IMG/VR virus record: IMGVR_UViG_3300035034_001742
Span: 1-64,000 of that record
Source of the DNA: a virus
Strand: one strand, 5' to 3'
Length of the DNA: 64,000 nucleotides
A program made the position numbers and the translations under genes. Below are positions 40,185 through 60,831 of this stretch, one piece after another (the stretch's first letter is position 1; each line of letters begins with the position of its first letter). Under the pieces are notes generated by a model. The model had not been told where the DNA came from, ran no database searches, and saw only the letters and a list, made by a program, of their open reading frames with translations.

Positions 40185-40192
40185 CATAAATA
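40185..40192 (+). promoter_or_regulatory. Late promoter CATAAATA heading the enzyme island
   Basis: ATAAATA core about 30 nt upstream of the 40223 ATG. Confidence 0.65.
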
Positions 40193-40222
40193 GCTAAAAC
40201 TACATAACACAGAGAACAATAC

Positions 40223-40570
40223 ATGGATCCGAAGTTAGCAAGAGCCCTCGAGTTTTCTCAGTATCGAGAAACCCTAAACAACCAAATGCAAGCCTTAAAA
40301 TCTCAAGTAGAAGTAAAGCTCATGCATTCTATTAACGGCGGCACGTTTCGAGTATCACCTGAGTTAATTACATTTGTTGATTTATTAATAGCTAAGGGAC
40401 AGTCTGAAACTGTACTGCTTGACATCAACAATACACCTATTAAAATCGCAGACTTAGCAGATTTCAGCACAGACATCTTATCACGCTATCACGAAGTTAC
40501 TAACGACTATCTCACGCAATACGAAAATATTCGTAAGGCTCGCTCGGTCACCAAAATAGTAGGGAAATAA
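40223..40570 (+). CDS. Hypothetical protein (possible fibre assembly factor)
   Basis: First ORF after the late promoter; NGGTF...LITF...VLLD.NNTPI motif. Confidence 0.6.
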   Translation: MDPKLARALEFSQYRETLNNQMQALKSQVEVKLMHSINGGTFRVSPELITFVDLLIAKGQSETVLLDINNTPIKIADLADFSTDILSRYHEVTNDYLTQYENIRKARSVTKIVGK

Positions 40571-40573
40571 ACA

Positions 40574-41461
40574 ATGTCAAAGGGTGCAATGATGTTTGCA
40601 CACAACAACGAAGAAATTGACTACATCAAGATTGCATGTTTAAATGCACTAATGATACAAGCGAATCTCGATGTTGGTGTAACACTAGTAACTGATGTCG
40701 GTACATTAAAGTGGGCCAAAGAATCTCTAGGAGCCGATTATCTCGACCAGTGCTTTGAGATTATTATAAGTGAAGATCCGGACTATGTGTACAAGCAAAA
40801 CAATATTCGCGTATTTAGAGATACAGTATACACCACCAAGCATTTGCCTTTTTACAATTGCGATCACTGGAAAGCATACGAGTTATCTCCATACGACGAA
40901 ACACTGTTCATCGATGCAGACTATTTGATAATGAGCGATGCATTAAACAGATGCTGGGGTTCGGCGCACGAAGTAATGATCAACAAAGACATAAGCGAAT
41001 TGTACTTTGGTCGCACACAAGAAAATAGCACAGTGGGCAAATCGGGCATTGACACATACTGGGCAACATGTATATACTTTCAGAAGTCAGAGCTAGCAGA
41101 GCATTTGTTTTACATGGTAAAATACATTTACGACAACTATGCTTACTATCGCGACCTGTATACAACTCCTAATTCGATGTTTCGAAATGACTATGCATTC
41201 AGCATTGCAGTACACATAATGAATGGATTTAGTAACAGTGACTTAATAAAGCAATTGCCAATCCCGGCATTGTACAAATCATTTGACAATGACGATATAG
41301 TTAGCATCAATGGCGTTAATGATATTACATTGCTACTCGAAAAACCTAAGTGCCACGGCGATTATATATTGTCCAGGTTCAAGGGAATGGATGTTCATGT
41401 CATGAACAAGTGGGCAATACTTCGCAATTACGATAAGCTAAAGGAGTTATACAGTGAGTAG
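40574..41461 (+). CDS. GT-A fold glycosyltransferase-like protein
   Basis: SPYDETLFIDAD (DxD motif) and FRNDYAFSIA. Confidence 0.75.
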   Translation: MSKGAMMFAHNNEEIDYIKIACLNALMIQANLDVGVTLVTDVGTLKWAKESLGADYLDQCFEIIISEDPDYVYKQNNIRVFRDTVYTTKHLPFYNCDHWKAYELSPYDETLFIDADYLIMSDALNRCWGSAHEVMINKDISELYFGRTQENSTVGKSGIDTYWATCIYFQKSELAEHLFYMVKYIYDNYAYYRDLYTTPNSMFRNDYAFSIAVHIMNGFSNSDLIKQLPIPALYKSFDNDDIVSINGVNDITLLLEKPKCHGDYILSRFKGMDVHVMNKWAILRNYDKLKELYSE

Positions 41462-58145: not shown

Positions 58146-58528
58146 TGATTTCAACAACGGATATGCAAACAGCAAAAAGTCACACAGCTACATTGCAAGC
58201 GCAAGAAACATACGCTGAACTAATACATCGCTTAACAAGAACTAATGTGTTCTCAGCTAATGCTGTCGATAATAACTTGGCAAATTCTATTGCAAATAAG
58301 TTTTTTAATTGCAGTTCAGTTTACAGTCATGTATTGTATCTACCATCGAGGACTTGTTTTCGCTTTGCTAAGCCGACCATGGTGGTTCCTTTGTTTGTTT
58401 CCGGTGACACTGTAATAGTTAACAACAAACACACCATTGTCAAATGCACCAATGACAGTATATTTTATAATAATGGGCTAGGTGTTGTTAATACCGGAGC
58501 ACCGTCGTGTCTGTTGGTGTCGCAGTGA
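58145..58528 (+). CDS. Hypothetical protein (paralog of 57304)
   Basis: VDNNLANSIANKFFN...SHVLYLP..TCFRF. Confidence 0.65.
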   Translation: MISTTDMQTAKSHTATLQAQETYAELIHRLTRTNVFSANAVDNNLANSIANKFFNCSSVYSHVLYLPSRTCFRFAKPTMVVPLFVSGDTVIVNNKHTIVKCTNDSIFYNNGLGVVNTGAPSCLLVSQ

Positions 58529-58983
58529 ACGAAAATATAATACAATTCGATTTACCCGTTTGCTTTCAGCAGGATTTATTATATATAAGCGAAAACTACT
58601 GTGCCGCTGACTCACCGGGCATGCTTGAATTTAAGAGAATTGGTTTCCATCGTTCGAAATTCGACGAATACGATTACGATGAGTTATACAACTTCGTAAA
58701 CAATCGGCTAAACTTACTTGGATTCATGCTAGTTAACCCCATGGTAGTGTACTTGATTACCACGTGGCCTGGTCAAGCGTACACCGCACATCAAGATGAT
58801 ACATTAGTGGTGCATGTTCCAATAACAACAAATCCGCACTGCCGCATGCTTATTGGCGACAACACATATCACTTAACAACAGATAATTTTTATTTAACTA
58901 ATACATACAAGTGTCACAGCGCGTTTAACCTTGGCACTTCGCCACGCACACACATTGTATTCTCAGCAAAGGAAAAATCATGA
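58525..58983 (+). CDS. 2OG-Fe(II) oxygenase, Asp/Asn beta-hydroxylase-like (start corrected to GTG 58525)
   Basis: WPGQAY..HQD...VHVPI.TN...HSAFN....RTHI; GTGA overlap. Confidence 0.78.
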   Translation: MNENIIQFDLPVCFQQDLLYISENYCAADSPGMLEFKRIGFHRSKFDEYDYDELYNFVNNRLNLLGFMLVNPMVVYLITTWPGQAYTAHQDDTLVVHVPITTNPHCRMLIGDNTYHLTTDNFYLTNTYKCHSAFNLGTSPRTHIVFSAKEKS

Positions 58984-59885
58984 AAATTTTAATAACAGGC
59001 GCAAGCGGCTTCATCGGCCAGCACTTGGTGCAGAAGCTCAAAGGACACGAAATAGTAATACTCAACACTGACCTAAGAGACCACCAAGCAACTCGAGACC
59101 TTGTTAGGTTCGCCAACCCAGAGGTGATTATACATCTTGCCGCGTTAACCGAAGTAGAGCATTCTTTTTATCAGCAGGCATTATTCTCAGATGTGAATTA
59201 TACCGGCACTGTTAATTTAATTGAATCAGCAAGAGAAGCCCCTGCTCTCAAACTATTTCTGTTTTCATCTACCATGGAAACATACGGGTGGCAACCAATA
59301 TCAGATATCATAAGAGACAACGAGGCATTTGAACACGACCCGTTTAACGAAAGCACAATACAAAATCCAAACGCACCGTATGCAGTTGCTAAACTGGGTT
59401 GCGAGAAGTACTTAGAGTATGCCGCGCGTGCATATGACTTGCCGTACTGTATTCTGAGACAAACAAACACATACGGCAGAACAGATAACAACTTCTTTGT
59501 GGTAGAACAGATAATTACACAGATGTTAGCCGGTGACGAAATCAACTTAGGGTATGCAAAACCTTATCGCAACTTCTTGCATATTAGCGATCTGCTCAAT
59601 GCTTATGTAGCAATAATTAACAATGTAGACGCCGTTAAAAACGAGACCTTTTGCGTTGGCCCCGCTAATGCATTATCGATCGAAAAATTAGCCGAAAAAG
59701 TGGCTAAAAAACTTGATTGGCAGGGGATTATAAACTGGAATACAAAGCCCAAACGAGCTGGCGAGATATACTATTTGAACAGCACACATAAAAAGATCAC
59801 AGACACAATCGGATGGTCCCCTGAGATAGATTTAGACACTGGTTTAGACATGACAATTGAGTATTGGAAACATGGTACTAATTAA
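58980..59885 (+). CDS. NAD-dependent nucleotide-sugar epimerase/dehydratase (extended SDR)
   Basis: ITGASGFIG, IHLAA, SST..TYG, YAVAK, NTYG. Confidence 0.92.
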   Translation: MKILITGASGFIGQHLVQKLKGHEIVILNTDLRDHQATRDLVRFANPEVIIHLAALTEVEHSFYQQALFSDVNYTGTVNLIESAREAPALKLFLFSSTMETYGWQPISDIIRDNEAFEHDPFNESTIQNPNAPYAVAKLGCEKYLEYAARAYDLPYCILRQTNTYGRTDNNFFVVEQIITQMLAGDEINLGYAKPYRNFLHISDLLNAYVAIINNVDAVKNETFCVGPANALSIEKLAEKVAKKLDWQGIINWNTKPKRAGEIYYLNSTHKKITDTIGWSPEIDLDTGLDMTIEYWKHGTN

Positions 59886-60831
59886 AATACGACTACAAGA
59901 AGATCTGTTTAGACTATTCGATACCGACTTCAGTCCTGCTACCTCTCCTGTTACCAATATATTAAAAACCGGCCAGAGTTTAGTAATAGACACCTCGTTG
60001 GAGGTATTCGATTTAAACAACTTTGCTCGCAAGCATGCGTTCACTGTTCCTGTGTTTGACATACTCAGCGAATGCTGTAAGTGCGCAGGTGTATCAACAA
60101 ATAACATATATTGGCTGACGCCAGTTGCTGAGCACCAAGCAATTCACAGGTACACGTTCAACGGCACGCTACTCGAATACCATAACTCATCCAAGCCTAC
60201 TGTTAACTTCCGCCCTAGTGCTGACGTGCATTTTCTTTCTCTTAACAATCATCCACGACCACATAGAGAAAAGTTGGTAGAATTTTTGGAGTCGTCGGGA
60301 ATCAAAGACAAGTCGCTTTATAGTTACAATCCTCAAGGAGTTCAAAATCAGCGATCAGTTGTGCTTGATGAGCAATTCACTACAGGAAATAAATTAGACA
60401 AGTTAGATAGTGTGCCTGCATACGTTTGGGAAGGAACGCTTATATCTATTGTAACAGAAACTATATTCGCAGAGCCGATTGTGTTTCCAACTGAAAAGAC
60501 GTGGAAGGTATTTGACAAATTCCACTTTCCGGTATTTGTTTCGTGTGCTGGCTTTGTAAGTAGAATACGAGAGTTAGGGTTTGATGTGTTTGATGATTAT
60601 ATCGATCACTCATACGATACCATACAAGATAATACTGAGCGTCTAACGGCAGTGTTTAAAGTGATAGAAGATCTAAGCAAGCGTGATATTAGCGAACTAA
60701 ATCATATCAAGAGCCTGTGTCAGAAACGATTAATAGATAATAAAATGCATTTAAGAAAGCACACCACCTCCGAAATAATGAAGCTCGACATGTACCTTGA
60801 TTCTTTAAAGCGTGTGGTTACGCATAGATAG
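59872..60831 (+). CDS. GT-B/GT10-like glycosyltransferase-related protein
   Basis: FLSLNNHPRPHR; ISIVTET...PTEKTWK; GFDVFDDYIDHSYD. Confidence 0.62.
   Translation: MVLIKIRLQEDLFRLFDTDFSPATSPVTNILKTGQSLVIDTSLEVFDLNNFARKHAFTVPVFDILSECCKCAGVSTNNIYWLTPVAEHQAIHRYTFNGTLLEYHNSSKPTVNFRPSADVHFLSLNNHPRPHREKLVEFLESSGIKDKSLYSYNPQGVQNQRSVVLDEQFTTGNKLDKLDSVPAYVWEGTLISIVTETIFAEPIVFPTEKTWKVFDKFHFPVFVSCAGFVSRIRELGFDVFDDYIDHSYDTIQDNTERLTAVFKVIEDLSKRDISELNHIKSLCQKRLIDNKMHLRKHTTSEIMKLDMYLDSLKRVVTHR

Follow-up and report, generated by a model that had tools for sequence, protein, structure and literature searches.

The window analysed here, the first 64 kb of the 79.5-kb linear virus record IMGVR_UViG_3300035034_001742, carries an enzyme island of 22 open reading frames (ORFs), o1 to o22, on the + strand at positions 40223–60831. 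The island is confirmed as a genuine operon of soluble sugar-transferring enzymes, six radical S-adenosylmethionine (SAM) enzymes, and two oxygenases. Together these probably carry out glycan assembly combined with radical and oxygenase tailoring. The full statement, in which the fibre or baseplate proteins of the phage serve as the acceptor, is given a probability of roughly 0.48 on the sequence evidence.

The 22 ORFs form a nearly gapless run of 20.6 kb. Fifteen of the 21 junctions overlap, four have gaps of at most 19 nucleotides (nt), and two have larger gaps of 106 and 141 nt. This agrees with the first-pass annotation, which described a co-oriented, mostly overlap-coupled run of about 20 kb placed directly after the fibre genes. 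From 17.2 kb, the + strand encodes, in order, structural proteins, a gp5-like hub, gp25-like and gp6-like wedge proteins, a virion protein of 3416 amino acids (aa), and three small fibre-like proteins. The absence of a transporter or flippase, also claimed earlier, is upheld. The 22 island proteins have no membrane segment apart from one marginal stretch. Nearly all of them are acidic. The phage is uncultured and belongs to a jumbo class of about 320–360 kb that is distantly related to PA5oct-type and RsoM2USA-type phages, and CheckV places the completeness of the record at about 22%. Its sequence is found in 11 DNA metagenomes and in no listed RNA run, and the five largest shares come from lake, aquatic, outdoor, and ice samples. 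When the island was compared by megablast with 50,697 phage records, no match was obtained.

Enzyme families of the island

The radical SAM enzymes are o6 (43894–45291), o8 (46340–48004), o9 (48004–49215), o10 (49322–50539), o11 (50514–51842), and o12 (51818–53104). All six match the NCBIfam model NF033640 (N_Twi_rSAM, twitch domain-containing radical SAM protein) end to end at about 305–427 bits, where the curated cut-off is 170 bits, and all six contain CX3CX2C. They are mutual paralogues with 21–34% identity. Among them, o9 to o12 are four tandem paralogues with 26–31% mutual identity and 319–427 bits. o6 scores 338 bits and has the sequence CNFKCSYC at residue 140, and o8 scores 305 bits and has a C-terminal tail of about 90 acidic and basic residues. 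Across 12 sequences, comprising the six enzymes and six relatives, the invariant positions are C9, C28, C69, and C72 of the accessory domain, C123, C127, and C130 of the core, and G182–G183 of the GGE motif. The enzymes look intact, since they exceed the family cut-off and keep both CX3CX2C and the four accessory cysteines.

These proteins were first labelled radical SAM-SPASM enzymes. Six radical SAM proteins are indeed present, but the SPASM part of the label does not stand. The SPASM-like Pfam match lies N-terminal to the core (residues about 9–98, with the core at about 118–305; in one comparison, residues 9–73 and 118–270) and only four accessory cysteines are invariant, so that the domain is better described as an N-terminal twitch with one accessory cluster. 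The SPASM subfamily label was rejected because it needs a C-terminal domain with at least seven cysteines and two accessory clusters. NF033640 and the island enzymes share the order of a four-cysteine domain followed by a CX3CX2C core. The family exists only as a sequence model, although over 7,000 protein clusters match it at E 1e-10, and the island has six divergent paralogues of it in a phage. Literature searches found no characterised N-terminal-twitch radical SAM enzyme, and no radical SAM enzyme in jumbo-phage glycosylation.

The nearest solved sequence to the family profile is BtrN, the butirosin 2-deoxy-scyllo-inosamine dehydrogenase (PDB 4M7S/4M7T), which is matched through the twitch domain only (E 4e-5). 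BtrN, a radical SAM enzyme of the twitch type, has a carbohydrate-like small molecule as its substrate, and it provides the closest solved accessory domain. In contrast to the island enzymes, its twitch domain is C-terminal, and the cores have no significant alignment. The common twitch domain does not prove a common reaction. Many database relatives (L003, 9968–12466; P0019–P0058) are double-length proteins of about 800–950 aa that consist of tandem fusions of two N_Twi_rSAM units. Such fusions suggest that pairs of these enzymes work together.

Seven proteins resemble glycosyltransferases (GTs). o2 (295 aa, from 40574) and o3 (285 aa, from 41454) lie together at 40574–42311 and are paralogous, GT8-like GT-A proteins with a DxD motif. 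Their profile, A4, matches glycogenin-2 across the DxD region (E 1.3e-5), 19 glycogenin sequences were matched, and D114 and D116 are invariant. As single sequences, o2 and o3 have no match in Pfam, and their predicted membership in the CAZy family GT8 is remote. o5 (328 aa, 42888–43874) has a GT2-like GT-A domain at its N-terminus and a helical C-terminal domain in an AlphaFold2 (AF2) model with a mean predicted local distance difference test (pLDDT) score of 75. Foldseek/VIA matches of residues 1–155 to GT-A enzymes reach Z 10–11, values that are equalled by nucleotidyltransferases of the same fold. D63xD65 is invariant, and the protein is 45% identical to RsoM2USA_350, while a search of its profile against the PDB sequences found nothing. 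The count of three GT-A proteins given by the first-pass annotation is correct, with o2 and o3 GT8-like by profile and o5 placed by its modelled fold.

The other four are the TEK proteins o7 (45295–46338), o13 (53097–54179), o15 (54813–55955), and o22 (59857–60831), the last gene of the island. They are paralogues, joined in alignment A1, with the motif hhTE[TS]-x8-11-[IP]TEKxxK. Their homologues are few and all unnamed, and several lie on contigs of 320–334 kb. The nearest protein relatives come from contigs of 324–333 kb, where P0059 and P0066 are encoded. The AF2 model of o15 (pLDDT 83) has the two-domain GT-B fold, and its three paralogues are likewise classed as GT-B-like. Two enzymes tie as the best structural matches of this model at Z 11.5, the Helicobacter pylori α1,3-fucosyltransferase (2NZX/2NZW; root mean square deviation 4.2–4.4, 266–271 residues aligned) and the T4 β-glucosyltransferase (BGT). 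These top matches stand about 1–2 Z above many other GT-B enzymes.

The earlier description of the TEK proteins as GT10-like is retained for motif and fold, but the GT10 Pfam profile, PF00852, does not match them. None of the 14 members of the family matches PF00852 even at E 10, and the model is also absent from the 79.5-kb record and from five Bacteroidota genomes. The family profile found nothing among the PDB sequences, and a tblastn search with a TEK protein against phages gave no match. Eight PF00852-positive bacterial proteins all carry hhxENx-x5-Y[VIY]TEK. In an hhalign comparison with A1, TE[TS]..TEK of the phage family aligns with EN..TEK of these proteins over 112 columns (P 0.0013), with a probability of only 18%. 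The TEK family resembles CAZy GT10 (PF00852; H. pylori fucosyltransferase, 2NZW) in its modelled GT-B fold, where the match ties with T4 BGT, and in a TEK block that falls in register at this low probability. It differs in a longer loop between the two motifs and in an N-terminal domain that is unrelated in sequence. Since PF00852 is unmatched and the alignment probability is low, GT10-like is a fair description and not a statement of membership. The net charge is negative in all four TEK and all three GT-A proteins.

The 3′ part of the island encodes the enzymes that probably supply and oxidise sugars. o16 (56097–57311) resembles nucleoside diphosphate (NDP)-sugar 6-dehydrogenases. It matches PF03721 and PF00984 above their cut-offs, carries the motif GGACHPRD, and has the N-terminal and central domains of UDP-glucose and GDP-mannose dehydrogenases. 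TIGR03026 reaches 146.6 bits, below its cut-off of 189.8, and the C-terminal domain PF03720 was not detected. o21 (58980–59885) is an extended short-chain dehydrogenase/reductase (SDR) of the NDP-sugar epimerase, dehydratase, or decarboxylase class (PF01370, E 9e-43) with the motifs GASGFIG and YAVAK, and it does not reach the NCBIfam equivalog cut-offs. Between them lies a duplicated unit (57280–58983) of a small protein and a cupin dioxygenase, composed of o17 (138 aa) with o18 (154 aa, from 57681) and o19 (127 aa) with o20 (158 aa, from 58507). The identity between the copies is 35% for o17 and o19 and 41% for o18 and o20. o18 and o20 match PF05118 with 32.0 and 29.3 bits (cut-off 22.6) over the C-terminal two-thirds of the profile only, and both have the iron triad HxD...H, as HTD or HQD plus a later H. 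A nucleotide-sugar dehydrogenase, an epimerase, and two hydroxylases had been listed for this part. The dehydrogenase-like protein, the extended SDR, and the two PF05118 cupins correspond to them, and the reaction of the SDR is not fixed by any NCBIfam equivalog.

Linkage to virion genes and bacterial context

The metagenome contig L095 (319.6 kb) keeps the island genes in the same order, save for one dioxygenase pair and two extra genes. It has a single small-protein/dioxygenase unit, compared to two in the window. The degree of identity to L095 depends on the class of protein. It is 77–87% for the radical SAM enzymes, GT-A proteins, and dehydrogenase (o16, 79%), 47–68% for the TEK proteins, and 54–66% for the fibre-like proteins. 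The values are lowest for o14 (36%) and the dioxygenase (35%). The two extra genes encode a protein of 254 aa (9237–10001) with a weak match to DUF6071 and one of 368 aa (17886–18992) with no match. They show that cassettes are gained and lost here although the gene order is otherwise constant.

Two fibre-like genes, which lie outside the enzyme island and directly precede it on the + strand (37963–40148), are linked to it in relatives. They encode proteins of 434 and 292 aa. The first has a C-terminal domain resembling an intramolecular chaperone (Pfam Peptidase_G2 IMC, E 3.6e-5, below cut-off), and Ser and Thr make up 25% of the second. Homologues of both are found directly upstream of the module in L095 and in the IMG/VR contigs L005, L006, L008, and L009. 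In the latter four, the genes run in the order o1-o2-o3-o4-o5, and between three and six radical SAM genes come next. A cultured jumbo phage of Ralstonia, RsoM2USA (L114, 206810–231679; L002), has the five-gene core as ORF354–350. Next to it are the radical SAM gene ORF349, which resembles o6, a further gene resembling o5, and one for an SDR, and a homologue of o8 with 55% identity (RsoM2USA_202) is found elsewhere in the genome. The genes of this module are all annotated as hypothetical and stand directly behind ORF361 and ORF356, which are virion proteins by mass spectrometry (PMC8504454). The synteny check proposed with the first-pass annotation thus connects the core to fibre or virion genes at three levels of divergence, represented by L095, L005–L009, and RsoM2USA, over a span of protein identity between 80% and about 35%.

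Members of the radical SAM family are also present in other phages, and KVP40-type vibriophages have two to five of them. Several contigs binned in bacterial metagenome-assembled genomes (MAGs), namely L018, L026 (a Haliscomenobacter MAG), L024, L033, L034, and L037, have the phage-type o2/o3/o5 core with five to seven radical SAM genes. L018 and L026 carry TEK homologues as well. All six are likely to be phage contigs that were mis-binned.

In species genomes, 78 loci of the radical SAM family were found, mostly in Bacteriovoracaceae, Bdellovibrionales, Elusimicrobia, Chitinophagales, and Saprospiraceae, and often with two to eight tandem copies; a few of the MAG contigs among them have the phage core and are probably mis-binned phage. 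For a tally of neighbours, 51 loci of at least 12 kb were clustered and the commonest clusters annotated. The commonest neighbours are an ABC ATPase (12 loci) with an ABC-2 permease, GT4 (nine loci) with GT2 proteins, and PhyH/Asp_Arg_Hydrox dioxygenases, of which 34 copies occur at seven loci. Also common are radical SAM proteins of a second type, an epimerase, an AsnB-like amidotransferase, and an SDR. In L056, a complete Crocinitomicaceae chromosome, a UDP-sugar dehydrogenase, an epimerase, a carbamoyltransferase, three family members, a sulfotransferase, PhyH, and an ABC ATPase occur together. This context is the predicted signature of the synthesis of an exported, heavily tailored polysaccharide or glycolipid. 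By comparison of gene content, the phage island is the putative soluble subset of the bacterial toolkit. It would activate and transfer sugars and tailor them by radical and oxygenase chemistry, and it has no exporter or lipid-carrier enzymes. The GT4 neighbour is fused once to UbiA and GDSL domains. In L056 (6622–9864), a 1079-aa UbiA prenyltransferase-GT4-GDSL esterase protein adjoins three N_Twi_rSAM genes, which is a hint of a polyprenyl-linked or lipid acceptor in the bacterial pathway.

Two copies of ATAAATA accompany the island on the + strand. One (40186–40192) is 31 nt before o1, and the other (56067–56073) is in the 141-nt gap, 24 nt before o16. They correspond to the late promoter said to head the island and to the further one placed at 56066, although neither copy is the full T4 TATAAATA, and both are late-promoter-like as motifs only. 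The + strand of the record has 11 copies of ATAAATA, compared to about 15 expected from its composition. Seven of the 11 are 20–120 nt upstream of gene starts (6926, 9598, 17232, 22583, 37292, 40223, and 56097), and five of these seven precede structural or island genes, the baseplate genes included. ATAAATA is a candidate late-promoter consensus of the phage lineage, and late expression of the island is plausible.

Probable product and acceptor of the proposed pathway

The proposed pathway would be wholly cytoplasmic and transcribed together with the structural genes. In its first steps, o16 and o21 would convert host NDP-hexoses to uronic, epimerised, or decarboxylated sugars. The seven GT-like proteins, of which two are GT8-like, one is a GT2-like GT-A, and four are GT10-like GT-B proteins, would add these sugars stepwise; their folds or profiles are those described above and their activity is presumed. 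The six N-terminal-twitch radical SAM enzymes may abstract hydrogen from sugar carbons, leading to oxidation, epimerisation, dehydration, or C–C chemistry in a manner like that of BtrN on an aminocyclitol. The two 2-His-1-carboxylate dioxygenases may hydroxylate further positions. The acceptor would most probably be the fibre or baseplate proteins of the phage itself, which would be made at the same time and place, and the outcome would be a distinct, chemically unusual fibre coat in each phage lineage.

Synthesis of unusual sugars and stepwise glycan assembly had already been proposed by the first-pass annotation. Leaving its virion acceptor aside, this proposal is supported by the seven GT-like proteins, the dehydrogenase-like o16, the SDR, and the bacterial glycan context. 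The virion acceptor is favoured because of the conserved linkage to fibre and virion genes, the motif held in common with structural genes, the all-cytoplasmic toolkit, and the divergence of the TEK proteins, which is similar to that of the fibre-like proteins. A more specific version can be put forward only tentatively. It holds that giant phages use arrays of twitch radical SAM enzymes and 2-oxoglutarate (2OG)-type dioxygenases for C–H chemistry on protein-linked fibre sugars, and that the fast-diverging TEK GTs set the lineage-specific glycan.

If this more specific version is true, virions would undergo a post-translational modification of a new class, radical SAM chemistry on carbohydrates would gain a new branch, and the lineage-specific fibre glycan would influence adsorption or the evasion of host defences. 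Radical SAM enzymes that act on glycans are, to our knowledge, rare. The use of 20 kb, about 6% of a genome of about 330 kb, on six such enzymes and seven GTs behind the fibres implies that a costly chemistry of the surface or of nucleic acids is under selection and at present escapes annotation. The core module occurs in the cultured RsoM2USA, so the question is open to ordinary glycoproteomics, liquid chromatography–mass spectrometry (LC-MS) of nucleosides, and enzyme assays.

Some known systems are comparable in part. Serine-rich adhesins undergo sequential cytoplasmic glycosylation by GtfA/B and GlyD/E, and Freeman and co-workers reportedly described the glycosylation of mycobacteriophage virions in 2023 (cited in PMC12619734). 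In these systems, soluble GTs beside the structural or substrate genes are said to glycosylate a virion protein or a fibrous protein while it is in the cytoplasm, with GT8 and GT-B enzymes in series. They are without radical SAM or dioxygenase tailoring, and their likeness to the island is limited to folds.

A similar gene content is known from the host recognition cluster of T4-like pelagimyophages and cyanomyophages, which lies beside the tail fibres and contains GT8-type GTs, a UDP-glucose 6-dehydrogenase, radical SAM cassettes, and an Asp/Asn β-hydroxylase (Zaragoza-Solas et al. 2020, PMC7029224). This fibre-adjacent cluster is hypervariable, and its architecture is conserved (PMC7029224). 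That study is descriptive, reads the cluster as acting on the host O-chain, and does not identify the radical SAM and TEK GT-B families; the present phage differs in being a jumbo phage. The existence of the NF033640 model and the descriptive record of radical SAM cassettes beside fibres (2020, PMC7029224) were thus already known. The unbiased bacterial-context tally, the GT10 profile test, the differential divergence from L095, the rejection of a peptide precursor, and the cultured carrier of the core are new here.

Several observations weigh against a glycan built on the virion. For members of NF033640, neither a reaction nor a substrate or structure came up in the literature searches. The T4 BGT, a DNA enzyme, fits the TEK model as well as the fucosyltransferase does. 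In KVP40 (L105, 132603–155460), the family member KVP40.0272 is paired with the GT4-type KVP40.0274 among nucleotide-metabolism genes and not among fibres. The fibre synteny may reflect only the conserved architecture of the host recognition cluster (PMC7029224). Finally, the bacterial homologues appear to build exported glycans, which would fit chemistry on the host envelope equally well.

The alternative that survives best, although unlikely, is that the enzymes remodel host envelope glycans. Lipid-linked O-antigen, capsule, or lipopolysaccharide (LPS) intermediates would be modified on the cytoplasmic face, a host flippase or exporter would carry the product, and other phages would be excluded or the cell protected. 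The bacterial homologues in polysaccharide clusters with ABC-2 exporters are in line with this, as is the GT8-like profile match of o2 and o3, GT8 being a typical LPS-core family. The same reading has been proposed for the GTs of the host recognition clusters in pelagimyophages, where radical SAM cassettes also occur (PMC7029224). However, the island lacks a phosphoglycosyl transferase for initiation, a polyprenyl-linked enzyme, a flippase, and any membrane segment, and it lies within the structural block behind a late-type motif. The core carrier RsoM2USA is described as lytic (PMC8504454), and a late conversion of the surface would have little time to act.

Hypermodification of the phage DNA is a less probable candidate. 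On hydroxymethyl-pyrimidines or a different modified base, the GTs would assemble an oligosaccharide that the radical SAM enzymes and dioxygenases would edit, thus guarding the packaged DNA from host nucleases. This alternative is stronger than the first-pass annotation implied, because GT8-like and T4 BGT-like phage GTs with epimerases do glycosylate DNA. Phage GT-A enzymes similar to WaaJ/WaaO (GT8) and to PBCV-1 A64R, and BGT-like GT-B enzymes with epimerases, were shown to glycosylate 5-hydroxymethylcytosine (5hmC) (Pyle et al., bioRxiv 10.1101/2023.12.21.572611). The tie of the TEK model with the T4 BGT (Z 11.5) would agree with such a role, as would the KVP40 locus, where nrd, topoisomerase, and QueC/QueE-like genes are close to those of the radical SAM and GT4 proteins. 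The likeness of the island to the phage DNA glycan clusters and to T4 BGT is in the GT8-like GT-A and BGT-like GT-B proteins with epimerases. In contrast, those clusters adjoin a hydroxymethylase, or 5mYOX/TET and a methyltransferase, and have no radical SAM array, while the island proteins are acidic and such genes were not found in the record. The first-pass statement that no thymidylate-synthase-like base-modification gene is visible holds within the 79.5-kb record, about 22% of the genome, where neither PF00303 nor the TET/JBP model PF12851 was found. The net negative charge of the TEK and GT-A proteins, the alignment of the TE..TEK block with GT10 fucosyltransferases, the presence of the bacterial radical SAM relatives beside polysaccharide exporters, and the conserved virion-gene linkage also argue against a DNA substrate.

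Direct modification of a peptide or protein is very improbable. In this case, the radical SAM enzymes and the Asp/Asn-hydroxylase-like dioxygenases would act in the style of the maturases of RiPPs (peptides made by the ribosome and modified after translation), on a small peptide or on fibre residues, and the GTs would then add sugars. Weak similarity to peptide maturases of the SPASM type in NCBIfam and Pfam, the naming of PF05118 after protein hydroxylases, and weak Foldseek matches of the o5 model to the glycocin S-glycosyltransferases SunS and ThuS are compatible with it. So is a 37-aa ORF (49212–49325) between o9 and o10, which is rich in Tyr and other aromatic residues and has ATGA overlaps at both ends. 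This ORF was rejected as a RiPP precursor because it lies in an insertion of about 110 nt (49213–49321, + strand) that is missing from both close relatives, L094 and L095, where o9 and o10 abut. The insertion is lineage-specific and found once in the window. A RiPP cluster has a conserved precursor beside the maturase, and the sole candidate here is not conserved in L094 and L095. Neither the insertion nor its ORF is likely to function in the island. The four cysteines of the accessory domain, the closest solved accessory domain in BtrN, which is not a peptide maturase, and a bacterial context of carbohydrate and not of peptide genes also speak against a peptide substrate. An equally improbable product is a diffusible glycosylated small molecule or glycolipid, aminoglycoside- or nucleoside-like and freed at lysis or acting in the cell, which would be in keeping with the BtrN-like twitch domain, the UbiA prenyltransferase fused or adjacent to GT4 in some bacterial loci, and the carbamoyl- and sulfotransferases of bacterial clusters, but for which the phage island has no scaffold-forming enzyme (cyclase, nonribosomal peptide synthetase, polyketide synthase, or prenyltransferase) and a large number of GTs, seven, and which leaves the conserved position behind the fibres without explanation.

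Further features of the island

The number of sigma-70-like sites in the island, 53, does not exceed that expected by chance (53.1). A terminator-like hairpin is predicted on the + strand at 60848–60868, between the island and the convergent − strand genes. It is weak evidence, since terminator-like sites overall are at chance level. The start-proximal ATAAATA copies (6873, 9534, 17212, 22549, 37174, 40186, and 56067) are often preceded by T-rich sequence and "tg". A second family member in KVP40 is near QueC-like and QueE-like genes, likewise among genes of nucleotide metabolism and away from the fibres.

Comparison of o1, o4, o14, o17, and o19 with Pfam, PHROGs, and NCBIfam gave nothing usable. 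In the ESM Atlas, o14 and o19 were modelled with pLDDT 0.36–0.37 and had no feature matches (TM below 0.45). o14 (214 aa, 54176–54820) lies between the TEK genes o13 and o15. o4 (195 aa, 42304–42891) is a gene of the five-gene core in which the N-terminal 65 or so residues are conserved and the C-terminus is divergent. o1 (115 aa, 40223–40570) is the first gene of that core, with 79% identity in L095 and 33–37% in L005–L009 and RsoM2USA_354.

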